From: Anaerosomatales bacterium
GTDB taxonomy: Bacteria > Actinomycetota > Coriobacteriia > Anaerosomatales > SLCP01
DNA: 64,000 nt
NCBI GenBank assembly: GCA_029210645.1
Contig: JARGFT010000006.1
Span: 25,061 to 89,060 of the forward strand
Reading direction: 5' to 3'
Part shown: one piece after another, positions 8,303 to 34,214 of the stretch
Layout of the letters: every line of letters starts with the position of its first letter
Position numbering within the stretch: position 1 is the first letter of the stretch
Position numbers and translations under genes: made by a program
The notes under the pieces: generated by a model
What the model saw: the letters and a program-made list of their open reading frames with translations, nothing else
Told to the model about the DNA's origin: nothing
Database searches by the model: none

Positions 8303-9661
8303 TCAGCTGACGGTGCCGTTGTGAGCTGCCTCCTCCTGCAGGTCGGCGTTGAAGTCAGGCGAATCGACCGCAAGGCCCTTGCTCTCGGGCGGCAGGATCA
8401 GGTTCAGGACGACGCCGACGACGGTCGCGAGCGCCATACCCGGGACCGTGTACTCGCCCACGGGAATCTTGATCTCGGCGACCTCCATGCCGATCCCGAG
8501 CACCAGCACGATGCTTGAGAGGATGAGGTTCCGGCTGTGGCTGTAGTCGATGCCGCTGTCCACGAGCATTCTGAGGCCCGAGGCGGCGATCAGGCCGAAG
8601 AGCAGGATCGATACGCCACCCATGACCGGCGTCGGGATGCTACCGATGAGCGCTCCGAGCTTCGGAACGAAACCACCGATCACGAAGGCGAACGCACCTG
8701 CGTACCAGAAAAGCTGCACTGCGTAGATCCGGGTCACGGCCATCACGCCGATGTTCTCAGCGTACGTCGTGGACGGTGTGCCTCCCACCATGGCCGAGAG
8801 CGACGTCGCGAGACCGTCACCGGCGAGCGACTGAGGGAGCAGCGGGTTGAAGTCCTTGCCGGTGATCTCGTTGATCACGAGCAGGTGTCCGATATGCTCG
8901 ATGATGACCACCAGAGCGACCGGAGCGATGAGCATGATCGCCGAGAATTCAAACTTGGCGATCGTGAGCGTCGGCAGGCCGATCCAGGCCGCGTCGAGGA
9001 CCGGCTGGAAGTTCACAAGTCCGAAAGGAATCGCCGCAAGGTAGCCCACGATGATGCCGAGCAGGATCGGGATCGTCGCAACGAAGCCCTTGAAGTAGCT
9101 GGAGAACCCGATCGAAGCCGCGAGAGTGATCGACGCCACGGCTACCAGGTCCCAGTCGAGCCCGAGGCTCGGGTCGGCGAACGGGAACAGCGACATCTTG
9201 ATCGCGATGCCCGCAAGCCCGAGGCCGATGATGATGACCACGGCACCCACGAGCGCCGGGGGCAGCAACCGGTAGAGCCACTTCGTGCCGAACGCTTTGA
9301 TGATGGCTGCGACCACCACGTACACGAGGCCGGCGACCACCAGGCCACCGAGCGCGTACGGTACCTTCCCTGGGTCAGCGACCCCGGCCGTGACGCCCGC
9401 CACCGCCGCGATCGGCGCGATGAACGCGAACGACGAGCCGAGGAAGCTCGGGATCTTCCCCTTCGTCAGGATCAGATACAGGATCGTGCCTGCGCCCGAC
9501 GTCATGATCGCGACCGAGGGGTCGAGACCGGTCAGGAGCGGTACCAGCACCGTGGCGCCGAACATCGCCATGAGGTGCTGCAGCGCGAGAGGCACCGCCT
9601 GGATGACAGGGAGCTTCTCGTCGGTTTGGATGAGTCGTGTCGTTGCCACTGGTCGTATCAA
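8303..9661 (-). CDS. uraA: uracil permease (NCS2/NAT family, UraA/PyrP-like)
   Basis: 452 aa. PLALQHLMAMFGATVLVPLLTG...GKIPSFLGSSFAFIAPI closely resembles the E. coli UraA N-terminal region. Multi-TM protein. Confidence 0.88.
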   Translation of the reverse strand: MIRPVATTRLIQTDEKLPVIQAVPLALQHLMAMFGATVLVPLLTGLDPSVAIMTSGAGTILYLILTKGKIPSFLGSSFAFIAPIAAVAGVTAGVADPGKVPYALGGLVVAGLVYVVVAAIIKAFGTKWLYRLLPPALVGAVVIIIGLGLAGIAIKMSLFPFADPSLGLDWDLVAVASITLAASIGFSSYFKGFVATIPILLGIIVGYLAAIPFGLVNFQPVLDAAWIGLPTLTIAKFEFSAIMLIAPVALVVIIEHIGHLLVINEITGKDFNPLLPQSLAGDGLATSLSAMVGGTPSTTYAENIGVMAVTRIYAVQLFWYAGAFAFVIGGFVPKLGALIGSIPTPVMGGVSILLFGLIAASGLRMLVDSGIDYSHSRNLILSSIVLVLGIGMEVAEIKIPVGEYTVPGMALATVVGVVLNLILPPESKGLAVDSPDFNADLQEEAAHNGTVS

Positions 9662-9665
9662 CCTC

Positions 9666-11084
9666 CTAGCCGATGAGCGCCATGAGTGCGGGCTCGAGGA
9701 AGGCCAGGACGAATGCGATGCTCACGCCCCACATGAGCCAATGGACCTCCCGGGCCTTACCGTGGAAGACCTTGATGAGCACCCAGCTGATGAAGCCGAA
9801 GCCGATGCCGTAGCTGATGTTGTAGGTGAGCGGGATACCGACGATGGTGAGAAACGCCGGGAAGGCCTCCTCGAGGTCGGTCCAGGGAATCTCTCGTACG
9901 GTCTGCATCATCAGGAAGCCGACGATGATGAGAGCGCCCGCGGTGATCGGATAGACGAAGAAGTCACCGGGAGGCGCCTGAAAACCGGAGCCGCCGTAGA
10001 GGGTGTACTGCAACTCGTTCGGGATGATCGATCCCCCACCTACCATGGCCACCACCGGGGCGAAGAAGGCCGCTGCGGCGAAGAAGAGACCGGTGATCAC
10101 CGGCGTGAGACCGGTGCGACCACCCTCGGCGACCCCTGCCGCCGACTCGATATAGGTCGTGATGGAGCTTGCTCCGAACAGACCACCCACGCTGGCAGCA
10201 GCAGAGTCGACAACGAGGATCTCGCGGATGCCCGGAACGCTCCCGTCAGGGCCGACGAAGCCTGCCTGCTCGCCGACTGCAACGACCGTACCCATGGTGT
10301 CGAAGAAGTCGGTGAGCATGATGGCGAAGATGGCGACGAGGAGCGCCGGGGTGAAGATCTGTGCGAGAGCCATCCCGCCGTCCACCTGCTGGAATGGTGC
10401 GAAGAAGGTCGAGAAGTCGAGCGGTGCGACGACTGCGCTGGGAAGCTGCGTGACGCCGAATGCCAGAGCTGCGGCGGTGGCGACGAGGATTCCCCAGAGG
10501 ATGTCGCCCTTGATGCGCAGTGCCATGAAGACCAGGATCGCGGCAAGTCCGATCAGCGTCACCCAAACGTAGGGCTGGGTGAAGTCGCCGAGCGAGACCA
10601 GCGTGATCGGGGCCGGCCGGATCACCCCACCCTGGTTCAGTCCGATGGTGGTGATGAACAGGCCGATACCGACACCGATCGCTCGCTTGAGGTCCAGGGG
10701 GATGGCGTTCATCACGGCCTCACGCAGGCCGGTCAGAACGAGCACGAGGATGATCAGGCCCTCGACGAAGATCACCGACATGCCGACCTGCCAGGGAACG
10801 TTCGCCTGCTGGAAGCCGATCACCGAGAAGGTCACGACCGCGTTCAAGCCCATGCCTGAAGCAAGCGCGAACGGGCGGTTAGTGATGAAGCCCATACAGA
10901 TACACATGAGAGCTGCACCCAGTGCGGTAGCGGTGGCAGCACCCGCGAACGGCACTCCCGCCGCAGACAGGATCCCCGGGTTCACGAAGATGATGTACGC
11001 CATCGTCATGAACGTCGCAATACCGGCGATGACCTCCGTCCTGAGGTCCGTACCACGCTCTTTGAACTTGAAGAAGCCTTCCAT
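9666..11084 (-). CDS. NCS2 family adenine/guanine/hypoxanthine permease (AzgA/PbuG-like)
   Basis: ORF 9666..11144. ATG 11084 gives MEGFFKFKERGTDLRTEVIAGIATFMTMAYIIFVNP, the typical PbuG/PbuO-type N-terminus. Multi-TM protein. Confidence 0.85.
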   Translation of the reverse strand: MEGFFKFKERGTDLRTEVIAGIATFMTMAYIIFVNPGILSAAGVPFAGAATATALGAALMCICMGFITNRPFALASGMGLNAVVTFSVIGFQQANVPWQVGMSVIFVEGLIILVLVLTGLREAVMNAIPLDLKRAIGVGIGLFITTIGLNQGGVIRPAPITLVSLGDFTQPYVWVTLIGLAAILVFMALRIKGDILWGILVATAAALAFGVTQLPSAVVAPLDFSTFFAPFQQVDGGMALAQIFTPALLVAIFAIMLTDFFDTMGTVVAVGEQAGFVGPDGSVPGIREILVVDSAAASVGGLFGASSITTYIESAAGVAEGGRTGLTPVITGLFFAAAAFFAPVVAMVGGGSIIPNELQYTLYGGSGFQAPPGDFFVYPITAGALIIVGFLMMQTVREIPWTDLEEAFPAFLTIVGIPLTYNISYGIGFGFISWVLIKVFHGKAREVHWLMWGVSIAFVLAFLEPALMALIG

Positions 11085-11665: not shown

Positions 11666-12089
11666 AGCCGCCCTCCCCTCTGACCGTCTCGTCGAGGGAC
11701 TCGACCTCGGACAGCTGGACACGGGCGACCGGCTGGATGACGAGCTGCGCGATCTTGTCGCCGCGCGCGAGGCTGATAGACGTCTCGGGGTCGAGGTTGA
11801 TCGCGATCACCTTGATCTCGCCGCGGTAGTGACTGTCGATGAGACCGGGTGTATTGACCAGGGAGAGGCCGGTGCGCAGCGCGAGTCCGCTTCGTGGCTG
11901 GACGAAGCCGGCATACCCCTCTGGGATAGCCACTGCGATGCCGGTGGGCACGAGCCCGCGCTCGAACGGGCGCAGCGTGATCGGCTCGGTGGCGAAAAGG
12001 TCGAGGCCCGCATCACCCTCGTGAGCGTAAGCCGGCAGAGGCAGACCGGTGTCGACACGTTTGATCGGAAGGCGCACCGGTCCGCTCAC
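11646..12089 (-). CDS. dut: dUTP diphosphatase
   Basis: Motifs [30 protein letters not shown] 12089 overlaps the nrdG stop (GTGA). The ORF track starts 36 nt further upstream. Confidence 0.92.
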
Positions 12090-12829
12090 ACCCCTCTCGC
12101 GATCGTCGGCAGGTACTCCGAACACGCGCCAATCGCTGCGGTGATCACGCTGGCGGAGAGCGGGGCGATGACAGCCGCTCCGGGATCAAGAGTCTGACCA
12201 GGGCGGAACTGCTGCAGGACGTAGAGATCGCCGCCCGCGAGGAGCTGCGCGAGAGCGGGCAACTCGGATGCGTCGATTAGCGGTGGGTACACGGTCGTCC
12301 GGAACTCGTGAGCGACGCCCGATCGGCGGACAACGTCGATGCTGGCGAGCACCGAGTCGCCCGAGGTTGCGGGACCGATCGTGTCGTAGCGATGCGGGAG
12401 CGTCTTCACGTCGAGCGCGACGTACTCGACGAGTCCGGAGTCCAGGACGTGCTGCAGCATCTGCGGAGCGGTCCCGTTGGTGTCGAGTTTGACCGGGATG
12501 CCCTTCGACGCGAGGGCCTCCAGGATGTCGAGGAGGTCAGGCGAGGCAGTCGGCTCGCCTCCGGTAAGCACCACGCCATCCAGCCACCCCCGTCGGACCG
12601 AGAAGTGCGTAAGGAGCGCAGACCACGACTCAGGTTCCGAGCTGGTGGCCAGAAGGTCGGCGTTGTGGCAGTACGGACAGCGCATCTGGCAGCCCGAAAC
12701 GAAGAGTGTTGCGGCGACCTTACCCGGCCAGTCGATCATGCCGGTGGGGATGAATCCCGCTATCCTGTCGGACGGACACGCTGCGGGCCGGTGCTCTGAG
12801 ATCGTCGCGGCAGCCGGACCCGACGTCAC
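12086..12829 (-). CDS. nrdG: anaerobic ribonucleoside-triphosphate reductase activating protein (radical SAM)
   Basis: [25 protein letters not shown] contains the CxxxCxxC radical SAM cluster motif. GTG 12829 overlaps the stop of the upstream redoxin gene (GTGA). Confidence 0.88.
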
Positions 12830-13071
12830 TGTGCGAGCACCTCCAGGAGTGCCTCCCGGCGAGGAGGCTCGCCGCGCCACCCGGCGATCTCCTGACCGCG
12901 CGAGTCGAGAACGAGCAGCGTGGGGGTGGCCAGCACGCCGAAGAAGGATGCCTCGGCAAGGCCATCGATACTGGCCACATCGTAGATCTCGACCGCGTCG
13001 AGGCCCTCACACACCCGCTTTGCAGCGGGACAGCGCGGGCACTGGTCCTTCACGAACAGCTTGACGTTCAA
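12826..13071 (-). CDS. small thioredoxin-fold redoxin (NrdH/glutaredoxin-like, CPRC active site)
   Basis: 81 aa, MNVKLFVKDQCPRCPAAKRV..., with a cis-Pro-like TPTL segment. Lies between nrdD and nrdG. Confidence 0.75.
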   Translation of the reverse strand: MNVKLFVKDQCPRCPAAKRVCEGLDAVEIYDVASIDGLAEASFFGVLATPTLLVLDSRGQEIAGWRGEPPRREALLEVLAQ

Positions 13072-17123: not shown

Positions 17124-18449
17124 CTACCGGGAAGATCCCGCTTCGGTCGCTTCGGCGTCCACCGCGTACTTCGCGAAGCTCGGCACCACTGTCGAGGGCA
17201 CCTGCATGACCAGCCGCGTTCCCTCCGGTGTGTGTCGCTCGCTCACCAGGTGAGTCCTCTCGTGAGCAAGACGAACGAGTTCCCCGTGGGTGTAGGGCAC
17301 GAGCACCGTCATCGTCACGCTGTCACGGGCGGCTTCCGCGGCGAGCCGCCGGAGGAAGGCCTCGACACCCTCTCCCGTGGCCGCGGAGAGCAGAACACTC
17401 TCGGGATGGCGGGCGATGAGCCGGGACCGCTCTTCAGGAGCGAGTCGATCGATCTTGTTCATGACCAGGACGCGTGGAGCTGAGCTGGCCTCGATCTCCT
17501 TCAGTACGACATCAACCGCCGCCATCTGGGCCTCAGCCTGGACGTGCGAGGCGTCGACGACGTGGAGCAGCAGGTCTGCCTCGCGAACCTCGTCCAGCGT
17601 CGACTTGAATGCCTCGACCAGCCCATGGGGCAGCTTGTTGATGAAGCCGACGGTGTCGGTCAGCGTGATCTCACGACCATCCGCCAGCGCAAGACGGCGG
17701 GTCGTCGAGTCAAGGGTCGCGAAGAGCATGTCGTAGGCGAGCGCATCAGCCCCGGTAAGCGCGTTGAGGAGCGACGACTTCCCGGCGTTCGTGTAACCGA
17801 CAAGCGCAACACGGAATACGCCGCTTCCCGCGCGCGACTTGCGCTGCGTCGCACGTGCGGCCGAGACGCGCCGCAGTTCACGCCTGAGGTCGGCGATTCG
17901 CTTGCGCGCGAGACGGCGGTCGGTCTCGAGCTGCGATTCTCCTGCTCCGAATCGCGCGCCACGCCCTCCGCCGAGTCGCTCGCGCACGAGGTGTCCCCAC
18001 ATGCCGCGCAGGCGAGGAAGCAGATACTCGAGCTGAGCAAGCTCAACCTGAAGTTTACCTTCACGGCTGACCGCGTGCATCGCGAAGATCTCCAGTATGA
18101 GCGCGGTGCGATCGAACACCCGGACATCCGGAAGGATGGTCTCGACGTTGGCTTGCTGCCGGGGCGTGAGGTCGTCGTCGAAGATGACGACCTCAGCGCT
18201 GTGTGCGTGGGCGAGCTGGGCGACCTCCTCGGCCTTGCCGGCACCTATGAACGTGCGCGGATTGGCCTTGTCGAGGCGCTGGGTGGCCATCGCGGCGGTA
18301 TCGATGCCCGCGGTGTACGCCAGTCGCTCGAGCTCGGCGAGTGACTCTTCGACCGGCCACTCCCCCGCTCCGCGGTCTACGCCGACCAGGACAGCCCGGG
18401 GCCTGGAATCATCGCGCTCCCATTCGGGAGGGCGCGTACGTCCGCTCAT
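17124..18449 (-). CDS. hflX: GTPase HflX
   Basis: ORF 17124..18704. ATG 18449 (MSGRTRPP...) lies 11 nt after the dapL stop codon. GTP-binding VALVGYTNAGKSSLLNAL, DTVGF, NKID. Confidence 0.9.
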   Translation of the reverse strand: MSGRTRPPEWERDDSRPRAVLVGVDRGAGEWPVEESLAELERLAYTAGIDTAAMATQRLDKANPRTFIGAGKAEEVAQLAHAHSAEVVIFDDDLTPRQQANVETILPDVRVFDRTALILEIFAMHAVSREGKLQVELAQLEYLLPRLRGMWGHLVRERLGGGRGARFGAGESQLETDRRLARKRIADLRRELRRVSAARATQRKSRAGSGVFRVALVGYTNAGKSSLLNALTGADALAYDMLFATLDSTTRRLALADGREITLTDTVGFINKLPHGLVEAFKSTLDEVREADLLLHVVDASHVQAEAQMAAVDVVLKEIEASSAPRVLVMNKIDRLAPEERSRLIARHPESVLLSAATGEGVEAFLRRLAAEAARDSVTMTVLVPYTHGELVRLAHERTHLVSERHTPEGTRLVMQVPSTVVPSFAKYAVDAEATEAGSSR

Positions 18450-18462
18450 GTGCGTGTCATCC

Positions 18463-19617
18463 TCAGAGGGTCGCCTCGATCCTCGCGATGGCCTCTTCGA
18501 GGCGGTCGTCCGGGGTGGCGAGGCTGATCCGGATGTATCCCTCGCCGCTCGGTCCGTAGGAGTTGCCCGGTGCGACGATGACGTTGGCCTCTTCGAGCAC
18601 CTTGGTGGCGAAGTCAGCCGACGTGTAACCCTCGGGGATTCGCGCCCACACGTAGATGGTGCCCTTGGGCATCTGGGCTCGCAGACCGATCTTGGCGAGC
18701 GCATCGATCACGAGGTCGCGGCGGCGCTGATAGAGCGCGGAAAGCTCGTCGACCTCCTGCGGTCCGAGCAGCGCCTCGATCGCCGCGTCCTGGACCGCGG
18801 TGAAGACGCCCGAGTCGATATTGGACTTCACCGTACCGAGCGCCTTGATGGCGGTGGCATTGCCTGCCGCGAATGCGACACGCCACCCGGTCATGTTGTA
18901 CGCCTTCGAGCAGCTGAATAGTTCGATCGCAACGTCCTTGGCGCCCGGGCGTTCGAGGAAGCTCGGCGGCTTGTAGCCGTCGAAACCGATCTCGGAATAG
19001 GCGTTATCGTGGATGATGAGGAGATCGTGCTCGCGGGCGAACTCGATCGCGCGGTCGAAGTACTCGGGAGTGGCGATGGCCGAGGTCGGGTTGTTCGGGT
19101 AGGACAGAAACATCATCTTGGCCCTGGCGAGCACGTCGGCCGGGGTCGATTCGAAGTCTGCGAGGAACCCGTTCTCCTCGGTCATGGGCATCCAGTGCGT
19201 CAGGCCGCCCGAAAGGATGCCGCCGGTGTGGTAGACGGGGTAGCCGCAGCCGGGTACGAGCGTGTAGTCCCCCGGGTCGACGAAGGCGAGGAATATGTGT
19301 GCGATGCCTTCCTTCGAACCGATGAGCGCGAGGGTCTCGTCGTTCGCGTCGACCTTCACGCCGAAGCGGCGGTCCATCCACTGTGCGCATGCCTCGCGGT
19401 AGCGCTTTGCACCGTAGTAGCTGGGATACTGGTGGTTGGAAGGGTTGCGGATGGCCTCGGCCATCGCGTCGACGATGCGGTCGGGAGTTGGCGTATCGGG
19501 ATCGCCGATGCCAAGCGAGATGACGTCGATGCCCTGCGCCTGCTTCGCCTCCTTCTTCCGGTCGATCTCGGCGAACAGATACGGAGGGAGCTCGGCGATG
19601 CGCTGGGCGGTTCTCAC
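18463..19617 (-). CDS. dapL: class I/II aminotransferase, probable LL-diaminopimelate aminotransferase (DapL)
   Basis: AELPPYLFAEIDRKKEAKQAQGIDVISLGIGDPDTPTP and the SCSKAYNMTGWR PLP-lysine region. Adjacent to dapF. The family call is confident, but substrate specificity is inferred. Confidence 0.6.
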   Translation of the reverse strand: MRTAQRIAELPPYLFAEIDRKKEAKQAQGIDVISLGIGDPDTPTPDRIVDAMAEAIRNPSNHQYPSYYGAKRYREACAQWMDRRFGVKVDANDETLALIGSKEGIAHIFLAFVDPGDYTLVPGCGYPVYHTGGILSGGLTHWMPMTEENGFLADFESTPADVLARAKMMFLSYPNNPTSAIATPEYFDRAIEFAREHDLLIIHDNAYSEIGFDGYKPPSFLERPGAKDVAIELFSCSKAYNMTGWRVAFAAGNATAIKALGTVKSNIDSGVFTAVQDAAIEALLGPQEVDELSALYQRRRDLVIDALAKIGLRAQMPKGTIYVWARIPEGYTSADFATKVLEEANVIVAPGNSYGPSGEGYIRISLATPDDRLEEAIARIEATL

Positions 19618-19692: not shown

Positions 19693-20568
19693 TCACCCGG
19701 CTGGCGGGGCTTCGTCCGGGACCTTCACGCTGCCGCGAAAGACCTCTACCGCCGGACCCGTCATGTAGACGCGCCCGTCCTGGCCCCAGCGCACAGAGAG
19801 CTCGCCACCGGGCAGCTCGATGGTCGCTTCACGGTCGGTGTGGCCTGCCAGCACGCCGGCCACGAGTGTGGCACACGCGCCGGTCCCGCAGGCGAGCGTC
19901 TCGCCCACCCCGCGCTCCCAGACTCTCAAACGGATGTGTTTCCGTCCCGCGGGCTGCGCGAACTCCACGTTGGTCTTCGCCGGGAAGAGCGGGTCGGTCT
20001 CTATCAGCGGCCCGGCGGATCGGACCGGCGCAGAGTCGACGTCGTCGACCCAGATGATGGCGTGCGGATTGCCCATCGAGACAGCGGTGATGGTGAATTC
20101 GCCGGCGTCAGTGGTGATGGGGTGGTCGATCGCGCGCTCGCCCGGCAGGGCAACAGGAATCCGCGCGGGCTCGAAGACCGGCTCGCCCATGACGACGGTG
20201 GCGGTTGCGAGGAGTCCCGCGGCGTCGCGCGAGAAGGTGATCGGCTTGATGCCGCCGAGGGTCTGAACCCGAACGGAGTTCGCGCCTGCGTCGACCAGTC
20301 CGCGATCGACGACGAACTTGGCCAAACACCGGATGCCGTTGCCGCACATCTCCGCGGGCGTGCCATCGGCGTTGTAGTAGAGCATGAAGAAGTCCGCGTC
20401 GGGCAGGGACGACGGGCGAACGAGGATCACTCCGTCCGCACCGATCCCGAAGTTGCGGTGACAGAACCATGCGACGGCTTCGGGCGCCAGATCGAGTGCC
20501 TCATCGAGGTCCTCGACCATGATGAAATCGTTCCCGAGGCCGTGCATTTTCGTGAACTCAAGGAGCAT
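19693..20568 (-). CDS. dapF: diaminopimelate epimerase
   Basis: MLLEFTKMHGLGNDFIMVEDL..., catalytic Cys contexts MCGNGIRC and LACGTGACA. Confidence 0.93.
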   Translation of the reverse strand: MLLEFTKMHGLGNDFIMVEDLDEALDLAPEAVAWFCHRNFGIGADGVILVRPSSLPDADFFMLYYNADGTPAEMCGNGIRCLAKFVVDRGLVDAGANSVRVQTLGGIKPITFSRDAAGLLATATVVMGEPVFEPARIPVALPGERAIDHPITTDAGEFTITAVSMGNPHAIIWVDDVDSAPVRSAGPLIETDPLFPAKTNVEFAQPAGRKHIRLRVWERGVGETLACGTGACATLVAGVLAGHTDREATIELPGGELSVRWGQDGRVYMTGPAVEVFRGSVKVPDEAPPAG

Positions 20569-20587: not shown

Positions 20588-21589
20588 TCAGTCTGCAGTC
20601 AGACGCCAGGTGCCCGGAGCCGGCGTGCCCGTGCCCGGTTCATCGGATTCTAGCAGTCCGAACGCTGCCCGGGCGCACTCGTCTGTCGAGCGGTCGGTCG
20701 CATCGATCCAACGGATGCGAGGGTCGCTGCGGAACCACGTGAGCTGCCGTTTGGCATACCTGCGCGTAGCCTGCTTGATCTGCCCGATCGCCTCGGCAAG
20801 GTCGGCACCGGCCTCGACAACGGGAACGAGCTCCTTGTAACCGATCGCCTGTGCGGCGGTGAGCGCGTCACGGAACCCGGCTGCCAGAAGCGAGCGGACC
20901 TCGTCCGGCAGTCCCGCCTCGACCATCTGCTCGACGCGGGTTTCGATGTGCCGGTAGAGCCGTTCGCGTTCCATGGTCAGGCCGAGGAAGACTGCGTCGT
21001 AAACGCTGTCCCGTACGGAGAAGCGCGCAGCCTGTGCAGCGTAGGAGTCCCCCAGCGCCGCCATCTCCAGCGCACGGATGGTGCGACGCACGTTCGACGG
21101 GTGGATGAGCCTTGCCGAGTCGAGGTCGACCAGGGCAAGCCGTTCGTGCATCCCGGCCGGACCAACCTCGGCGGCCTCGCGTTCGAGCGCCTGCCTTTCC
21201 GGGGTCGACGCCTCTCCATGCGGAAACTCCCAGTCGTCGAGCGCAGCACGGACGTACAGGCCGGTACCTCCGCAGACGAACGGCAGTGCGCCGGCGCGTG
21301 CGATGCGTGCGATCGCTTCCCGGGCCTCGTGCTGGTAGAGCGCGGCGCTGAAAGGGGTTCCCGGGTCGACGATGTCGAGGCAGTGGTACGGCACACGTCT
21401 GGCCTCCGCGGGAGGCTTCGCTGTGCCGATGTCCATGCCCCGGTAGACCTGCATCGAGTCAGCCGAGACGATCTCTCCGCCGAGCGAGACAGCGAGATGT
21501 TCGGCCAGGGCTGTCTTGCCTACAGCCGTCGGCCCAACGATGGCGATCACCCGCAGGTGACGTGTGGAGTCAGGAGTAGCGGTCGACAC
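20588..21589 (-). CDS. miaA: tRNA dimethylallyltransferase
   Basis: P-loop VIAIVGPTAVGKTALA, DSMQVYRGMDIGTAKP. ORF track start is 21703. In-frame GTG 21589 is the more likely start and overlaps the end of the upstream gene by 20 nt. Confidence 0.88.
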   Translation of the reverse strand: MSTATPDSTRHLRVIAIVGPTAVGKTALAEHLAVSLGGEIVSADSMQVYRGMDIGTAKPPAEARRVPYHCLDIVDPGTPFSAALYQHEAREAIARIARAGALPFVCGGTGLYVRAALDDWEFPHGEASTPERQALEREAAEVGPAGMHERLALVDLDSARLIHPSNVRRTIRALEMAALGDSYAAQAARFSVRDSVYDAVFLGLTMERERLYRHIETRVEQMVEAGLPDEVRSLLAAGFRDALTAAQAIGYKELVPVVEAGADLAEAIGQIKQATRRYAKRQLTWFRSDPRIRWIDATDRSTDECARAAFGLLESDEPGTGTPAPGTWRLTAD

Positions 21590-22940
21590 GGAATCGTTCC
21601 AGCGAGCAGGATTCGTCGGGTGTGATGCCGGCTTTCCGACGTGCGATGTCGACCTGTTGAGCGGGCGTATCGACGCCCTCGAGGTCGGGCAGGAGCAGCC
21701 CACGACGCCACCCGCAGGAAACGATCACGCCGTAGTCTTCAGGGTCGAGGTCGGCGAACGAGCACTCCTCCGGGGCGTGTAGGACGTCGACCTTGATATC
21801 GAGCCGCGGCACCTCCTCGGGTGAGACTCGAGGAAAGCGCGGATCCGTGGTCGCAGCCTGCACCGCGTTGCGCACCACTTCCTCGGCGAGAGTGGGCCGT
21901 GTGGGCTCGATGGTTCCGATACAACCCCTCAACATACCGTGGAGGTGGAGGCTGACGAATGCTCCTGCGCGAGCCGGGAGGGCAGGGTCGGCGAGGACGG
22001 TCGGGAGGGACTCGGTGCCATGCACGATGTGCTCGACGATCGCGTCTCGAGCCAGACGGACGATCTCGTGCCCGTCGCGGCCTGCTGCTCCCCCCTTCCG
22101 CCCGCTTCCCCCGGTGATCTCGGCGGTGTCGGTGCTCCTGAGCTGCGCACTCTCCCCCACCAGTGCGGTGAGGTAGCCGACACCCCACGGTCCTTCGTAC
22201 GCGAGGAGACGAGTCGGTGCACCGGGCATCGCTCCCGAGAGAGCGATAAGCGAACGCAGGCCGCACTCCCCCGCCGCATCGGCGAGCTGCCGGTCGACGT
22301 CCACGAGTTCGTCCAGATCACCGCATCGCACCTGGTCGACCACGTATGCGTCGAACTCGGCGCCGCGCGCGGAGTAGCCGGCGGGTGCGTCCCGGGTCAG
22401 GCGGTGGCTCAGGTCGCCGCTGGCGAGGAACGCGATCTTGCGGCCGAGCGCGCGCGCCACATCGGCTACGACGCCGCCGAGTCGCCGGTGGCTGTCGAGG
22501 GAGAGCCCCGAAAGCGAGAGACTGACCAGCGGAAGCGAGCCGTCCGGGTCGAGGAAGCTCAGGGGCACCAGCACGCCGTGATCGAGGACACCGACGCGCA
22601 GCCCCGGATGGGCCGTGCGGGAGATGGCGGGAAGCCCCGCGACTTCCAGGTTCTCGAGAAGGGTCTCGGCGAACTCGACATCGGTGACTGACGATATCGC
22701 CGAGCGGGGTGCTCCGAAATCGGCGAGTGACCCCTGCGTGCGCGGAGAGGTATCCACCGTGAAGGCGTCAGCCAGAGCGGGGGTGTGTGGCGAGATGACC
22801 ACGAGCGTGTCGGGCGCGAACCGTGCAAGAACGTCCGCGGCGGTCCGCATGGCCCCGATCGAGTCGGCGGTCACCTCGCTGCGCGAGCCGCCCACGTCAC
22901 GGACCATGATCGGGGGGTGTGGCGCGATGATCCCGAGCAT
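21570..22940 (-). CDS. fusion protein: N-terminal class III extradiol dioxygenase-like (LigB/Memo-fold) domain plus C-terminal AMMECR1 domain
   Basis: N-terminal half MLGIIAPHPPIMV...VVISPHTP...GDLSHRL is LigB-like. C-terminal half has the AMMECR1 hallmark GMLRGCIGTIEP. ATG 22940 is chosen because ORF start 23012 would overlap miaB. Confidence 0.75.
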   Translation of the reverse strand: MLGIIAPHPPIMVRDVGGSRSEVTADSIGAMRTAADVLARFAPDTLVVISPHTPALADAFTVDTSPRTQGSLADFGAPRSAISSVTDVEFAETLLENLEVAGLPAISRTAHPGLRVGVLDHGVLVPLSFLDPDGSLPLVSLSLSGLSLDSHRRLGGVVADVARALGRKIAFLASGDLSHRLTRDAPAGYSARGAEFDAYVVDQVRCGDLDELVDVDRQLADAAGECGLRSLIALSGAMPGAPTRLLAYEGPWGVGYLTALVGESAQLRSTDTAEITGGSGRKGGAAGRDGHEIVRLARDAIVEHIVHGTESLPTVLADPALPARAGAFVSLHLHGMLRGCIGTIEPTRPTLAEEVVRNAVQAATTDPRFPRVSPEEVPRLDIKVDVLHAPEECSFADLDPEDYGVIVSCGWRRGLLLPDLEGVDTPAQQVDIARRKAGITPDESCSLERFRVDRYS

Positions 22941-22971
22941 CGGCGTGTCCACGTCAGGCCTCCTCGGCAGT

Positions 22972-24339
22972 TCAGTGAGCGTCCGCGTTATGGGAGCCGG
23001 CCGCTGCTTCACCCAGAATGTACCCGCTCAAGAACCACGTCTGCGCCTCGGTGATCATCACCGGTGCGAACCGGCCCCGGAACTCCTCGGCATGCTGGCC
23101 CGGTTCGAGCGGGACGTGGACCACCTTATGTCCCTCGCTGCGACCGGCAAGCACGTTCGCGTCACGTTTCGACACGCCCGTGAAGAGCACCTGTTGGACG
23201 CTGTCGACGAGCGCACGGTTCTTGGCCAGTGCCGAGTGCTGCACCACGTCGACCAGGCGGTCGAAGCGTTCCTGGGAGATCTCGCGGGGCACCGGGTCAC
23301 CGAGTGAGGCGGCGGGCGTCCCTTCCCTCGGCGAGTAGATGAAGGTGAACGCCTGGTCGTAGCGCGCGTGCTCGAGCACTTCCAGTGTGTCGAGGAAGTC
23401 GGCCTCGGTCTCACCGGGAAAGCCGACGATGATGTCGGTGGAAAGCGCGAGGTCGGGCATGGCGCCGTAGAGCCTGTCGACGAGTTCCAGATAGGACCGC
23501 TTGGTGTAGTGTCGGTTCATCGCCGTCAGGATGCGGTCGGAACCCGACTGCACCGGCAGGTGCAGCGAGTGGGCGACCTGCGGGATGATGGCCATCGCCT
23601 CGATGGTTTCGCCGGAGAGGTCCTTCGGGTGGCTGGTGGCGAAGCGGATCCTCTCGACACCCGTCTGTGCGACTGCCGTCAGCGCTTCGGCGAAGCGGGG
23701 CGTCCCGTGAAGGTCCCGGCCGTACGAGTTGACGTTCTGGCCGAGCAGGGTCACCTCGCACACACCCTCGGCTGCAAGGCGCTCGCACTCGGTGACGATC
23801 TGCCCGAGCGGACGTGAGCGTTCGCGGCCACGGACGTACGGCACGATGCAGTACGTGCAGAAGTTGTCGCAGCCGACCGTTATGGGCACCCACGCATGCC
23901 ATTCGTGCTCCCGCTCGGAGGGCAGGTCGCTCGTGAACTCCTCGGAAGCCTCGAGCACCTCGACGACCGAGCCGCGGCCCCTGCGCGACGCCTCGATCAG
24001 TGAGGGCAGGTGCGACACGTTGTGGGTGCCGAAGACGACGTCGACGTGGGGCAGCTGGCCAAGGAGGCGCTCTCCGTCGCGCTGCCCGATGCACCCACCC
24101 ACCGCGATCGTCTGGCGTCCCTTCCGGGCTGCCTTCACGCTCTTGAGCGACGCCACCTGACCGCGAAGCCGCTCGTCGGCTCTGTCCCGGACGCAGCACG
24201 TCATGAAGACGACCACGTCGGCATCTGCTGCTTCATCAACGGGGGTCATCCCGGCGGTTCGAAGCAGCCCGGCGACGCGCTCGGAGTCGTGCTTGTTCAT
24301 CTGGCACCCGAAGGTGCGGATCAGGTAGGTCTCTCCCAT
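22972..24339 (-). CDS. miaB: tRNA-2-methylthio-N6-dimethylallyladenosine synthase (radical SAM methylthiotransferase)
   Basis: ATG 24339 gives MGETYLIRTFGCQMNKHDSE. Radical SAM motif CDNFCTYC. C-terminal TRAM-like region. Confidence 0.92.
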   Translation of the reverse strand: MGETYLIRTFGCQMNKHDSERVAGLLRTAGMTPVDEAADADVVVFMTCCVRDRADERLRGQVASLKSVKAARKGRQTIAVGGCIGQRDGERLLGQLPHVDVVFGTHNVSHLPSLIEASRRGRGSVVEVLEASEEFTSDLPSEREHEWHAWVPITVGCDNFCTYCIVPYVRGRERSRPLGQIVTECERLAAEGVCEVTLLGQNVNSYGRDLHGTPRFAEALTAVAQTGVERIRFATSHPKDLSGETIEAMAIIPQVAHSLHLPVQSGSDRILTAMNRHYTKRSYLELVDRLYGAMPDLALSTDIIVGFPGETEADFLDTLEVLEHARYDQAFTFIYSPREGTPAASLGDPVPREISQERFDRLVDVVQHSALAKNRALVDSVQQVLFTGVSKRDANVLAGRSEGHKVVHVPLEPGQHAEEFRGRFAPVMITEAQTWFLSGYILGEAAAGSHNADAH

Positions 24340-24396
24340 AGCCGGACGAGTGTAGCACGCGGCTGAGCGCGTCCTCGCGGCGCTCACGCGAAGGTC

Positions 24397-25248
24397 TCAG
24401 CAGCGCGAGGGAGGAAGGTCCGGCAGCGATCTACCCGCCGCAGCGAAGAGAGCCGGAAGCACGGAATCGGGCATCTCCACCGAACCGAGCGCCGGGTTGG
24501 GAGCGAAGGGGCCGTGGTAGTCGGTGCCGCCGGTGAGCAGCAGGCCGTGCCCGGCGGCGAGACGCGCATAGTGCTGCCGTTGACCGGGACCGTGCTCAGC
24601 GTGATAGGCCTCGAGGCCGGCAAGGCCGCTGGCGACCAGTTCGGGGATGAGGTCGTCCGCGCCGGTGACTCCCGGATGCGCCAGCACGGGAACGCCACCG
24701 GCGTCGAGGATGACCTGTAGGACCTCCGCAGGCGTTCTGACGTCCTTGGGCACGTAGAAGGGCTTTCCGCGTCCGAGAAGGCGCTTGAAGGCGTCAGAGA
24801 CGTCCTGCGCGTGCCCCCTGTGGACGAGTGCGCGTGCGACGTGCGAGCGGCCCACAGCGGCGCCCTCCGAGAGATCCATCACCTCGTCGAGCGGCAGGTG
24901 GTATCCGGCTGCGTCAAGCGCGGCGACGATAGCGCGAGCACGGTTCAGGCGCGCCACACGCAGATCGGAAAGGTGGGTGCGCAGTTCGACATCGGCGGGA
25001 TTGGCGAAGTAGCCGAGGATGTGCACATCGAGTCCTCCGTGGACTGCCGAGAGCTCCACCCCGGGAATGACCGTGATGCACTCGTGGCACGCCGCGGCAG
25101 CGTCGAGTGCCTCCTGTACTCCCTCTATTGAGTCGTGGTCGGTGATCGCGACGGCCACGAGCCCCGCCTCGGCGGCCTGGCGCACGATTTCGGTGGGCGT
25201 GAGGGTGCCGTCTGAGGCGGTGGTATGCACGTGCAGGTCGAAACGCAC
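24397..25248 (-). CDS. PHP-domain metal-dependent phosphoesterase (TrpH/YciV-like)
   Basis: MRFDLHVHTTASDGTLTPTEIV...ITDHDSIEG, the PHP motif pattern. Confidence 0.85.
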   Translation of the reverse strand: MRFDLHVHTTASDGTLTPTEIVRQAAEAGLVAVAITDHDSIEGVQEALDAAAACHECITVIPGVELSAVHGGLDVHILGYFANPADVELRTHLSDLRVARLNRARAIVAALDAAGYHLPLDEVMDLSEGAAVGRSHVARALVHRGHAQDVSDAFKRLLGRGKPFYVPKDVRTPAEVLQVILDAGGVPVLAHPGVTGADDLIPELVASGLAGLEAYHAEHGPGQRQHYARLAAGHGLLLTGGTDYHGPFAPNPALGSVEMPDSVLPALFAAAGRSLPDLPPSRC

Positions 25249-25266: not shown

Positions 25267-25539
25267 CTAGCGGTGCATGTCCCTCGGTTCGACGAGGAGC
25301 CGGATGGCCGTGCGTTCCTCGCCATCGATGAGGATGTCGGCGAACGCAGGCACGCAGGTGAGTTCCATGCCCGAGGGAGCGATGAAGCCTCTCGCGATCG
25401 CGATAGCTTTGATGGCCTGATTGAGCGCTCCGGCCCCGACGGTCTGAACCTCTACCGGACCCTGCTCTCGGATGATCCCGGCAAGCGCTCCTGCGACGGA
25501 GTTCGGATTTGACTTGCTGGAGACCTTAAGCACTTCCAC
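25267..25539 (-). CDS. spoVS: stage V sporulation protein S homolog
   Basis: GTG 25539 is preceded by GAGGAG at 7 nt and gives VEVLKVSSKSNPNSVAGALAG...GAGALNQAIKAIAIARGF, near-canonical SpoVS. The ORF track adds 15 extra N-terminal codons. Confidence 0.9.
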   Translation of the reverse strand: MEVLKVSSKSNPNSVAGALAGIIREQGPVEVQTVGAGALNQAIKAIAIARGFIAPSGMELTCVPAFADILIDGEERTAIRLLVEPRDMHR

Positions 25540-25638
25540 TGGTGCTCCTCTGCTGGCATACCTGCTGCGACGTGTGCTGCTCAATAGAGTATCGGACTGC
25601 GGGCATGAGTACTGGAGTGCGCATGTGAACTGCCGGCC

Positions 25639-25644
25639 ATTATA
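25639..25644 (-). promoter_or_regulatory. putative spoVS promoter -10 (perfect TATAAT)
   Basis: Minus strand TATAAT, about 95 nt upstream of the spoVS GTG. No good -35. Confidence 0.4.
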
Positions 25645-25667
25645 GCGCAGAACCGCTGGCAGAAACC

Positions 25668-26744
25668 CTACTCCTCCTTGTCGACGTCGAACCGGACGCG
25701 GATGCCGTCCCTCGTGACGCTGATCTTGGGCTCACCCTTGAGGTGAAGGTAGTACCGCTCGGCGAGATCGTCGAAGGCCCGGGCCATGTCCTGCTTGAAC
25801 CGCGCGAGGTCGGTGTGATGGATCTTCAGGCTCCTGCGGTCCCGGTAGATGTCCGGCGCGGGCGCGGGCACAGCCTCCTCCTCCACCTGAGCCTGTGAGA
25901 GGACGGTGTCCAGTGAACTGAGCTCGTTGCCGAGGATCCGATGAGCGGTGCGCTCGGAGAGCGGGAGTCCGAGGGTGGTCGCGATCTCGACGAACTCGGA
26001 GGCGTCGCACGCGGAGGCGGGACGCTGCCACACGGGGAAGCGACCGGGCTCGTCGCAGAAGAGTAGGTCGGACGTATCGAGGGTTTCGCGCGCAACGGTG
26101 CACAGCGTCGCGGCCACCTCAGCGGGTGAGCCGAGGTACACGTCGAGCTCGGGGTGCTCGCATGCAAACTCGAGTACGCGTCTGATGATGTTGTGAGGTC
26201 CGCGGGTGACCCGCAGCACGCCGTTCTCGTCGCTCTCCACGACCGGCCAGGTCGACTGGTCGGCACGCTCGGGCAGCAGCTCGCCCTCTGCGAAGAGCGT
26301 GATCGACGTTCCGCGGTGCGTGTCTGAGGCGGCAACGCGGCAGGTGGAGGTATTGGCCCGGACCGAGTAGAGCGCCATGCCCCGCCCGTGAACGCCCCAG
26401 CGGTCCATCACCATCGTGTCGAGCTTGGAGGTCACGCGTGGCTCGAAGACCGTCTCGTGGTGGGTGGCGGGAATCCCGATGCCGTCGTCGATCATGGTCA
26501 GGAGACGGCGTTCGCCCTCACGGGTCGTCGCGATGAAGATACGCTGAGCGTGGGCGTCACGCGCGTTGCGCAAGAGCTCGACGACGATGTCTTCGACCGA
26601 GCGGATGTCGTGCTTGGCCTGTCGCCTCTCGGCCTCGGACGTGCGCAAGCGGACGTATCCCTCGCCGAGACTCTCCTCGACCTTCAGGTACGTCTCGCCT
26701 GAGACCGCTCCTACGAAGTCCAACAGGTTGTCGTTGTCGCTCAT
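25668..26744 (-). CDS. orphan GHKL (Bergerat-fold, HATPase_c-like) ATPase with HTH-like C-terminal segment; function unknown
   Basis: N box VELLRNARDAHA, G1 box IDDGIGI, G2 box GVHGRGMALYS. No DHp/HisKA or sensor domain. C-terminal EFVEIATTLGLPLSERTAHRIL resembles a helix-turn-helix. The start is ATG 26744 or GTG 26750. Confidence 0.7.
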   Translation of the reverse strand: MSDNDNLLDFVGAVSGETYLKVEESLGEGYVRLRTSEAERRQAKHDIRSVEDIVVELLRNARDAHAQRIFIATTREGERRLLTMIDDGIGIPATHHETVFEPRVTSKLDTMVMDRWGVHGRGMALYSVRANTSTCRVAASDTHRGTSITLFAEGELLPERADQSTWPVVESDENGVLRVTRGPHNIIRRVLEFACEHPELDVYLGSPAEVAATLCTVARETLDTSDLLFCDEPGRFPVWQRPASACDASEFVEIATTLGLPLSERTAHRILGNELSSLDTVLSQAQVEEEAVPAPAPDIYRDRRSLKIHHTDLARFKQDMARAFDDLAERYYLHLKGEPKISVTRDGIRVRFDVDKEE

Positions 26745-26783
26745 GCCCACAGTCTATACCGTCGAGGGATAGGTCTCTGCGCG

Positions 26784-32316: not shown

Positions 32317-32919
32317 CTACTCGCCTCCCGCCCTCTCCCACGGCCCGGTGATCACATCGCGGGCATGGTAGAAGTAGTCGATCATGGAGAGCACGGTCAG
32401 AGCCACTGCGATAGTCATGAGCAGCCAGGATGCCGAGGACACGAACGACGCGCCCTGCTCTCCGAGGATGCGGGCAACCGGGTCCGAGTCCTTGATGATG
32501 AACGCGACGATGGCAAGTACCTGAAACACCGTCTTGACCTTGCCGTAGGTGGATGCGGCGATGACCTTCCCCTCGGCAATGGCAACCATGCGCAGACCGG
32601 ACACGATGAACTCACGGCTGATGATGACGAGAGCGATCCAGGACGGTAGCGTGCCGAGTTCGACCAGCGCCACCAGTGCCGCGGTGACGAGCAACTTGTC
32701 TGCGAGAGGATCGAGGAACTTCCCGAACGTGGTGACCTCGTTGCGCGTGCGCGCGAGATAGCCGTCGACACCGTCGGTGACGGCCAGCAGGGTGAAGATG
32801 CCCGCCGCCCACACAGGGCCCCAGTCGGGCATGTTGCCGAGAAGTGTGGCGACGAAGACGGGGATGAACACCATTCGCGCGACCGTCACCCGGTTGGCCC
32901 AGTTCATCTGGAGCTTCAC
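32317..32919 (-). CDS. pgsA: CDP-diacylglycerol--glycerol-3-phosphate 3-phosphatidyltransferase
   Basis: CDP-alcohol phosphatidyltransferase motif DGVDGYLAR...GKFLDPLADKLL. GTG 32919 overlaps the rimO stop (GTGA). Confidence 0.9.
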   Translation of the reverse strand: MKLQMNWANRVTVARMVFIPVFVATLLGNMPDWGPVWAAGIFTLLAVTDGVDGYLARTRNEVTTFGKFLDPLADKLLVTAALVALVELGTLPSWIALVIISREFIVSGLRMVAIAEGKVIAASTYGKVKTVFQVLAIVAFIIKDSDPVARILGEQGASFVSSASWLLMTIAVALTVLSMIDYFYHARDVITGPWERAGGE

Positions 32920-34214
32920 GCGACCACCTCGCCTTCGAGGTCATACCCGTACGAGGTATCGATGCGTACCGCGACGATACGCCCGGGATCGACCGGCCGG
33001 TCGAGCATGACATAGCCGTCGACCTCCGGCGCCTGCCCGCCCCATCGGCCTATCGAGACCCCGTCCGGGTCCTCGCCTTCCGACAGCACATCGAGCGTCG
33101 TGCCGACGAGCCGCGCCGCACGTGCGACGCTGACCTCGTCAGCGACCTCGCGTACGCGGTTGGCGCGCTCGAACCGTTCCGCCTCCGGGATCTGGCCGGG
33201 CAGGCCCGCGGCGTCGGTGCCCTCCTCCGGCGAGTACGGGAAGATCCCCACGTAGTCCAGACCTGCCTGGCCGATGAACTCGAGCAGCTCCTCGAACTCG
33301 GCCTCAGTCTCCCCCGGATATCCGGCGATGAAGGTCGAGCGTAGGACGATGTCGGGCATAACGACGCGCAGGCGTGCGATGAGATCGAGGAACGAATCCC
33401 CCGAGCCGCTCCGGTGCATGTCGCGCAACACGCGAGCGGATGCGTGTTGGAGCGGCATGTCCAGGTAGTGCCGAACAGGCTCGAGTGTGGCCATGGTCTC
33501 GACAACTTGTGGCGTGATCGTGTCGGGCTGCACGTACATAAGACGCAGCCAGGCAAGCCCGTCGAGTGGGGCCAGCGCACGGAGCACGTCGGTGATGTCG
33601 CGCGAGCCGGCAAGGTCACGGCCCCACGAGGAGGTGTCCTGCCCGATCAGGACGAGCTCGCGTGCACCGACGGACAGCAGACCTGCTGCCTCGCTCGTCA
33701 GCTCTTCGAGCGAGCGGCTCCGGTAGGGACCGCGAATAGCCGGTATCGTGCAGTAGGCGCACGACCGGAAGCACCCGTCCGAGACCTGCAGGTACTCGGA
33801 GACGCCGCCTCCGGTTCGCGTGCCCGGAGGCGTGACTGCGCCGGGCGACACGCCGGTCAGGCGCTGGAGGACGCGGAGGAGCGCCGGCTCGTCGGCGACA
33901 GGAACGAAGGCGTCGGCCTCGGGCATCGCAGCGGCGAGATCGTCTCCGTAGCGGGAGACCATGCATCCGGCCACCACGAGCGTGCGGCCCGGGCGCTGGT
34001 CGCGCCACTCGGCGAGCTCCAGCGCGATGCCTACCGACTCCTCGACCGCATCGGTGATGAAGCCGCAGGTGTTGAGGACGACGACATCAGCATCGTCCAG
34101 ATCTGCGGCGACCCGGTACTCGGATGCGAGGACCGAGGCCCTCATCCGGTCGGAATCGACTTCGTTCTTGGGGCAGCCGAGGGTGACGAACGCTATCGCG
34201 GGGGCGGTGCCCAT
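32916..34214 (-). CDS. rimO: ribosomal protein S12 methylthiotransferase RimO (radical SAM MTTase)
   Basis: IAFVTLGCPKNEVDSDRM N-terminal domain, radical SAM CFRSCAYC, C-terminal TRAM. Confidence 0.85.
   Translation of the reverse strand: MGTAPAIAFVTLGCPKNEVDSDRMRASVLASEYRVAADLDDADVVVLNTCGFITDAVEESVGIALELAEWRDQRPGRTLVVAGCMVSRYGDDLAAAMPEADAFVPVADEPALLRVLQRLTGVSPGAVTPPGTRTGGGVSEYLQVSDGCFRSCAYCTIPAIRGPYRSRSLEELTSEAAGLLSVGARELVLIGQDTSSWGRDLAGSRDITDVLRALAPLDGLAWLRLMYVQPDTITPQVVETMATLEPVRHYLDMPLQHASARVLRDMHRSGSGDSFLDLIARLRVVMPDIVLRSTFIAGYPGETEAEFEELLEFIGQAGLDYVGIFPYSPEEGTDAAGLPGQIPEAERFERANRVREVADEVSVARAARLVGTTLDVLSEGEDPDGVSIGRWGGQAPEVDGYVMLDRPVDPGRIVAVRIDTSYGYDLEGEVVA

Follow-up and report, generated by a model that had tools for sequence, protein, structure and literature searches.

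A LigB-type/AMMECR1 fusion gene kept upstream of miaA in anaerobic Actinomycetota, and what its position may say about its function

In a 64-kb stretch of an Anaerosomatales genome (contig JARGFT010000006.1; hereafter the window, whose positions are used for its features below), a gene encoding a LigB-type domain fused to an AMMECR1 domain lies between miaB and miaA, all three on the minus strand. Does this position tell what the fusion protein acts on, or has an enzyme of a widespread family been kept there as a matter of inherited gene order? A reading of the window made earlier from its letters (the sequence-only reading) had raised the first possibility, proposing that the protein acts on the tRNA position A37 served by MiaA and MiaB, or that it assists the chemistry of MiaB. 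To our knowledge, AMMECR1 and Memo, which are conserved from archaea to humans and linked to human disease, have no assigned reaction, so that a clue to the substrate class from gene context is useful. We favour the second answer, with a probability of roughly 0.55: a known LigB-type/AMMECR1 enzyme whose gene was inserted once, long ago, upstream of miaA, whose place has been kept as inherited gene order in a housekeeping operon, and whose radical S-adenosylmethionine enzyme (rSAM) partner is encoded elsewhere. That the protein acts on tRNA A37 is plausible, though the support for it is weak.

The fusion gene is real and no chance open reading frame (ORF). Within the 480-residue ORF, Pfam recognizes LigB at residues 28–280 (PF02900; E = 1.4e-33; 116.5 bits; cut-off, 26.3) and AMMECR1 at residues 318–478 (PF01871; E = 2.9e-43; 147.7 bits; cut-off, 25), and the product passes TIGR04335, the model for AmmeMemoRadiSam system protein A (131.2 bits; cut-off, 99). 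More than 7000 homologs were found at E ≤ 1e-10; the top one, 93% identical (E = 1e-274), is a protein of an Anaerosomatales metagenome-assembled genome (MAG) that already bears the name 'AmmeMemoRadiSam system protein A', and the fusion type is known, widespread and named by NCBI. Translation from ATG 22940, 31 nucleotides (nt) past the miaB stop codon, gives the 456-residue protein and the spacing described in the sequence-only reading, and the motifs quoted there (IAPHPPI, ISPH, GDLSH, and LRGCIG) are each present. The alternative start GTG 22952, 19 nt past that stop codon, gives 460 residues, and because a ribosome-binding-like GAGGAGG box lies 6 nt ahead of it, the longer product is at least as likely. 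The profile assignment of the two halves holds for LigB, AMMECR1, and TIGR04335; for Memo, the N-terminal domain stays below the cut-off, with 22 bits on TIGR04336, the model for the Memo-type B protein (cut-off, 26), and has no Pfam Memo match. Orthologous fusions that stand beside an rSAM gene score 28.5 and 38.6 bits on the same model.

The usual context of the family was surveyed across genomes with a single representative for each species; at least 600 stretches matched, and from these the top 80 full-length fusions (L001–L080) were examined. Sixty-nine of them (L012–L080), 35–46% identical to the window fusion, come from Bacillota, Armatimonadota, Acidobacteriota, Deferribacteraceae, and an Eggerthellaceae MAG. 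An rSAM gene adjoins the fusion in 60 of these 69 loci, in 56 of them at most 110 nt downstream, which bears out the earlier expectation that the AMMECR1 family is usually paired with an rSAM enzyme. Sampled partners score 215–348 bits on TIGR04337 (cut-off, 220), and the usual partner is of a PflA/NrdG-like branch distinct from the methylthiotransferases. Neither miaB nor miaA lies within 10 kb of the fusion in any of the 69 loci, and no recurrent neighbour family other than the rSAM, a separate Memo-like one included, was found beside the fusion in them. Since no separate Memo-like family accompanies the cassettes, the role of the B protein seems to fall to the LigB-type domain; the normal unit is a two-gene cassette of fusion and rSAM, with the LigB-type domain apparently standing in for Memo. 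With a TIGR04337-type rSAM beside the fusion in 60 of the 69 loci, and with neither miaB nor miaA closer than 10 kb to it there, MiaB is not the general partner of the family. Even the Eggerthellaceae and Coriobacteriales fusions (L037 and L018) occupy other sites, each with its rSAM. The nine loci without an adjacent rSAM comprise two contig ends and seven with enough flanking sequence, among them all three of the Acidobacteriota loci.

The partner rSAM itself (for example, L013 11362–12186 and L012 11930–12955) occurs in a short form of about 275 residues that ends in GNC or GNI and a long form of about 335 residues with an extra C-terminal segment of four cysteines (CxxC...CxxC); the fusions nearest to the clade of the window have mostly the long form. 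Several partner-family representatives reach two- to threefold the usual length (P0542, 838 residues; P0550, 710; P0567, 651; P0548, 615), which suggests that the rSAM is fused in them to further domains, perhaps those of the A or B components. At the Lachnospiraceae locus L079, one of those without an adjacent rSAM, a gene for a PP-loop ATPase (QueC/LarE-like in Pfam; 9552–10367, minus strand) is convergent with the fusion, and its ORF ends within a few bases of it.

The relatives of the window belong to the Coriobacteriia/Anaerosomatales, and they keep a different arrangement. The eleven closest fusions (L001–L011; 51–61% identical; Coriobacteriia/Actinomycetota MAGs) all show the order PHP–miaB–fusion–miaA–dapF–dapL–hflX, the PHP gene lying beyond the contig end in L003. 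Metagenome contigs were scanned with the MiaA of the window and the neighbours were typed in 80 MiaA loci; four more loci of the Anaerosomatales type (MiaA 61–64% identical) have the fusion directly upstream of miaA, and miaB upstream of it wherever the contig reaches. With the window, the eleven genome loci, and a related Anaerosomatales MAG whose independent gene calls match the gene order of the window, the series miaB–fusion–miaA–dapF–dapL–hflX was found in 17 of 17 Anaerosomatales-type loci with enough flanking sequence. In about 25 loci with MiaA 44–54% identical to that of the window, several from human-gut metagenomes, miaB directly adjoins miaA, with hflX (or dapF) next in order and no fusion present. 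In neighbor-joining (NJ) trees, the Anaerosomatales-type fusions form one clade (bootstrap, 100/100).

A split version of the same arrangement was found in five loci, where unfused genes for a LigB-like protein (PF02900; ~280 residues) and an AMMECR1 protein (PF01871; ~175 residues), overlapping or one stop codon apart, lie directly upstream of miaA–dapF–dapL–hflX. MiaA and DapL of these loci are ~45% and ~50% identical to those of the window. One of them (L150) is identical to NCBI HEY5494917–22 from a Ca. Anoxymicrobiaceae MAG of the class Ca. Geothermincolia. The pair of that MAG (HEY5494922/HEY5494921) occupies the same site as the window fusion, likewise with no adjacent rSAM, and is 44–49% identical to it over both parts; the Geothermincolia-type loci differ in having two genes where the window has one, and in their upstream neighbour, which in the four loci with upstream sequence is a phosphoglucomutase gene in three and miaB in one (L156). 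In the NJ trees, the Anaerosomatales-type clade groups weakly (43/100) with these split pairs and the three Acidobacteriota fusions. The expected conservation of the neighbourhood is thus real within the lineage and ends there, as all 69 fusions outside it lie at unrelated loci. The supposed link to both tRNA genes divides in the same manner: miaA adjoins the gene or gene pair in all 22 loci (17/17 and 5/5) and in 0/69 of the others, whereas miaB does so in all Anaerosomatales-type loci with enough flanking sequence and, of the four split-gene loci with upstream sequence, in only one.

The fusion gene and miaA join closely. In the window, GTG 21589 is the sole plausible miaA start ahead of the P-loop and overlaps the end of the fusion gene by 20 nt, which agrees with the overlap noted in the sequence-only reading; in the related MAG, the independent gene call starts miaA on the last base of the fusion stop codon. 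Between the AMMECR1 stop codon and the P-loop of MiaA there are 16–78 nt in each of the 15 loci in which the two motifs could be located, so that the junction is overlapping or nearly so throughout.

The AlphaFold model of the protein (26 homologs; mean predicted local distance difference test score (pLDDT), 87.9) shows two domains that are well folded, joined by a disordered linker. The N-terminal domain of the model is closest, in a Foldseek search, to the Thermococcus LigB-like protein TK2203 (PDB ID: 5hee; template-modelling (TM) score, 0.82), followed by 7txy, 3vsg, 8iq8, and 1bou at TM scores of 0.7–0.8, with aminophenol dioxygenase and HPCD among them. MEMO1 is matched at a TM score of ~0.49; the relation of the LigB fold to Memo assumed in the sequence-only reading stands, with the window domain on the dioxygenase (PCAD/LigB) branch and not on the Memo branch. 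The closest solved structures for the C-terminal domain are the archaeal AMMECR1 proteins PH0010 (1vaj), MM0484 (1zq7), and ST0229 (1wsc). These and TK2203 are stand-alone proteins of no known function, 22–34% identical to the window protein. The eukaryotic counterparts likewise divide the two parts, MEMO1 having the LigB-superfamily fold with a metal site and AMMECR1 the AMMECR1 domain (PMC2034487).

His12 in PHPP, His56 in SPH, and His183 in SH belong to motifs shared with the β-subunit of aminophenol dioxygenase. We take His12 and His56 to be iron ligands and His183 to be the catalytic histidine, and Glu229 is a candidate for the ligand glutamate. His12, His56, Asp124–His125, His183, and Glu229–Cys230 are conserved in the rSAM-linked and the miaA-linked groups alike; Glu229–Cys230, LRGCIG, and DPRF are invariant in 26 sequences, and LRGCIG and DPRF are conserved across 81. 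Motifs of the LRGCIG/DPRF type have been predicted to form the active site of AMMECR1 (PMC2034487). Both domains of the fusion protein are intact. The miaA-linked clade retains nearly all residues that are at least 90% conserved in the rSAM-linked fusions; none of the few that differ is in a catalytic motif, S31/T and W256/F being the only consistent swaps, and no function-changing clade-specific swap of note was found at conserved residues between the two groups. The comparison thus gives no sign of a change in function in the miaA-linked clade, and the retention of the residues of rSAM-linked fusions argues against a new, MiaB-specific function. Cleavage of aromatic rings with O2 by the fusion is unlikely, because the host carries the anaerobic ribonucleotide reductase genes nrdD/nrdG, and also because the family occurs mostly in anaerobes with an O2-sensitive rSAM partner.

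These data are consistent with the following course of events. The protein is 'AmmeMemoRadiSam system protein A' in its fused form, a widespread two-domain enzyme, and may perform the same chemistry as elsewhere in the family, presumably a metal-dependent step and a cysteine-dependent one, both on a single substrate and without O2. Its normal co-worker, a PflA/NrdG-like rSAM, would in this lineage be supplied from another locus. An ancestor of these anaerobic Actinomycetota would have undergone a single insertion of a LigB-like and AMMECR1 pair immediately ahead of miaA, at a site within the conserved actinobacterial block miaB...miaA–dapF–(dapL)–hflX; the pair would have remained split in the Geothermincolia-type loci and been fused later in the Anaerosomatales line, with vertical inheritance and co-transcription with the neighbours thereafter. 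On comparison of the loci, the adjacency to miaB and miaA is best explained as mainly lineage-specific gene order and does not speak for MiaB as the rSAM partner. The synteny is weak evidence of shared function, because the block also keeps dapF, dapL, and hflX, for which we know of no role in tRNA A37 chemistry.

Several observations weigh against this explanation, the first being that the supposed partner did not come to light. No such rSAM adjoins the gene, as the sequence-only reading had it, and a hidden Markov model (HMM) search found no TIGR04337-type gene in the window; none was found in the ±10-kb flanks of 12 related genome loci or the ±8-kb flanks of nine metagenome loci, and the 80 MiaA loci contain no partner-family rSAM, so that an adjacent rSAM of the partner type is absent from 22 of 22 miaA-linked loci. 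Protein collections were searched with a Coriobacteriales rSAM, with a profile of nine long-form rSAMs, and with P0121 against 50%-identity representatives. Among the best 120–150 matches listed per search there was no partner rSAM from Anaerosomatales or Geothermincolia; the names among the matches listed were Coriobacteriales, Clostridia, Desulfotomaculales, WS1, Armatimonadota, and Negativicutes only. As the partner family comprises 773 50%-identity clusters at E ≤ 1e-30, of which only these top matches were listed, absence of the partner from whole genomes is not established. A second adverse point is the very tight miaA junction, kept across two actinobacterial classes despite a changing upstream neighbour, which is more than the minimum expected from drift. 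A third comes from the three Acidobacteriota fusions, the weakly supported sister group, which have no adjacent rSAM and stand beside a gene for a geranylgeranyl-reductase-family flavoprotein (TIGR02032, 169–171 bits; cut-off, 158.8), divergent from it at 220–310 nt; in L032 and L071, the fusion also adjoins gyrB–recF. Such reductase neighbours are confined to these three loci. With miaA in the one group and the reductase in the other, both rSAM-unlinked groups sit beside isoprenoid-handling enzymes.

The nrdG gene of the window (12086–12880) was considered as a hidden partner and rejected; it matches the NrdG2 model at 182 bits, lies beside nrdD, and is 28% identical to the partner family over 173 residues.

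The same points can be turned into an alternative, which we consider unlikely, that anaerobic Actinomycetota have a third i6A37-pathway enzyme in the LigB-like/AMMECR1 protein, or that this protein acts on the prenyl donor. Once MiaA and/or MiaB have acted on the tRNA, it might modify the isopentenyl-adenine further, for example on the side chain and independently of O2, and its co-translation with miaA would reflect that role. The position directly upstream of miaA in the fused and the split loci alike, the 16–78 nt to the P-loop, the constancy of this junction while the upstream gene changes, the missing canonical rSAM, and the geranylgeranyl-reductase neighbours of the Acidobacteriota fusions all speak for it; i6A combines a base with a prenyl group. 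It would also accord with the published prediction of an RNA base-modifying role for AMMECR1 fused to a ring-opening dioxygenase in an rSAM neighbourhood (Balaji & Aravind 2007; PMC2034487), so that RNA base modification by AMMECR1, a dioxygenase-like protein, and an rSAM is not a new idea. However, the evidence comes down to one or two events in evolution, within a block that keeps dapF, dapL, and hflX as well; the fusions of all 69 other loci are unlinked to miaA and miaB, the relatives with MiaA 44–54% identical have no insertion, and conserved residues show no clade-specific change. Moreover, archaea possess AMMECR1, Memo, and the partner rSAM and are without MiaA and i6A37; hence i6A37 cannot be the general substrate of the family. 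For the alternative, in turn, Burroughs et al. 2019 reportedly pointed to 'nucleotide base and aliphatic isoprenoid modification'. MiaE, the ms2i6A37 hydroxylase that acts after MiaA and MiaB, would resemble the protein in its proposed pathway position under this alternative only, being an O2-dependent di-iron protein of unrelated fold. A more specific proposal, that the pair of Anaerosomatales and Ca. Geothermincolia has been freed from the rSAM and has a role in the miaA operon on the isopentenyl-adenine of i6A37/ms2i6A37 or on the prenyl donor, seems to us quite improbable.

If the missing rSAM is instead taken at face value, the partner would have been lost in the lineage, and the protein would work alone on a substrate other than tRNA, as Memo and AMMECR1 must do in eukaryotes, its position at miaA being neutral. 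None of the miaA-linked loci has an rSAM nearby, the seven other fusion loci with enough flanking sequence, all three Acidobacteriota ones included, also go without, and no actinobacterial partner of the right lineage was among the matches listed. Against this, those searches show the best 120–150 of a 773-cluster family, and the full retention of the residues common to rSAM-linked fusions suggests that the reaction, and with it the partner, is unchanged; we regard loss of the partner as rather doubtful. It is highly improbable that the protein assists MiaB, whether by repair or re-loading of its sacrificial Fe–S/sulfur site or with MiaB as a surrogate rSAM partner, since, for all that miaB ends 19–31 nt upstream in the window and adjoins the fusion in all Anaerosomatales-type loci, phosphoglucomutase and not miaB precedes the split genes in three of the four loci with upstream sequence, the MiaB of the window is an ordinary full-length member of TIGR01574, and the usual rSAM of the family is of another branch than the methylthiotransferases.

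Returning to the favoured explanation of inherited gene order, the surroundings of the fusion gene form a long co-directional series on the minus strand: rimO ... recA–recX–rny–GHKL-ATPase gene–spoVS-like gene–PHP phosphoesterase gene–miaB–fusion gene–miaA–dapF–dapL–hflX, beyond which lie the divergent lexA and then nrdD/nrdG. A sequence scan, which is weak evidence, found no promoter-like or terminator-like site within the block. The product of miaB has the Pfam domains UPF0004, Radical_SAM, and TRAM with the CxxxCxxC motif; apart from it, the only radical SAM genes of the window are rimO (32916–34214) and nrdG. Features of the locus and of the loci compared with it are collected in Table 1.

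Table 1. Coordinates of the fusion gene, its domains and neighbours in the window, and of related loci (L numbers, in their own positions)
Feature	Position	Strand	Basis and remarks
LigB-type/AMMECR1 fusion gene	21570–22952	−	Pfam LigB and AMMECR1; TIGR04335
LigB-type (class III extradiol-dioxygenase-like) domain	22173–22931	−	PF02900; residues ~8–260 of the 460-residue protein
Variable linker, predicted disordered	22077–22139	−	Residues ~272–292; pLDDT <50; gappy in alignment
AMMECR1 domain	21579–22061	−	PF01871; residues ~298–458; LRGCIG (Cys344), DPRF (370–373)
GAGGAGG ribosome-binding-like box	22959–22965	−	Read from sequence; putative function
miaB, tRNA-i6A37 methylthiotransferase	ORF 22972–24387, probable ATG 24339	−	TIGR01574, 457.9 bits (cut-off, 355.3)
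miaA, tRNA dimethylallyltransferase	20588–~21589	−	TIGR00174, 258.9 bits
dapF	19693–20568	−	TIGR00652, 289.5 bits; 19 nt after miaA; same co-directional block
dapL	18463–19617	−	NCBIfam match; downstream end of conserved block
hflX	17124–~18450	−	NCBIfam match; downstream end of conserved block; synteny in 11 genomes
PHP-family phosphoesterase gene	24397–25248	−	Pfam PHP; directly upstream of miaB; kept in Anaerosomatales-type loci only
Split LigB-like and AMMECR1 pairs	L122 1055–2440; L130 1155–2554; L145 1–1229; L150 1645–3023; L156 6614–8000		
Acidobacteriota fusion and reductase regions	L032 37–2899; L033 8487–11329; L071 403–3304		

Three details of these neighbourhoods are recorded here. 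The longest ORF for hflX (17124–18704) overlaps dapL by ~240 nt and begins with ~85 residues of low complexity; the true start is probably near 18450, at an internal methionine (MSGRTRPPEW). At 25267–26750 on the minus strand, between rny and the PHP gene, a SpoVS-family gene (105-residue ORF; PF04232; E = 1e-37) is paired with a gene for a GHKL-type ATPase of 360 residues, an arrangement also kept in the related MAG, in a lineage not known to sporulate. In L001 (11388–13299), miaA and dapF are each split into two ORFs in different frames, probably by assembly frameshifts rather than as pseudogenes.

Set against the cassettes of fusion and TIGR04337-type rSAM in Clostridia, Negativicutes, Armatimonadota, Deferribacteraceae, and Eggerthellaceae, the window gene has the same two-domain architecture, length, and TIGR04335 match, and has the family-conserved residues in common with them at 35–46% identity; it differs in having no such rSAM beside it or within the 64 kb and in lying between miaB and miaA, whereas the cassettes occur in variable contexts. 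The fusion itself is ordinary, and what is distinct is the rSAM-unlinked arrangement in the miaA operon, kept in two actinobacterial classes with a tight miaA junction. If this arrangement is only inherited gene order, nothing is gained beyond annotation. If, on the other hand, a role in the miaA operon were true, it would for the first time assign a concrete substrate to the AMMECR1 and Memo/LigB-like families, including two genes linked to human disease.

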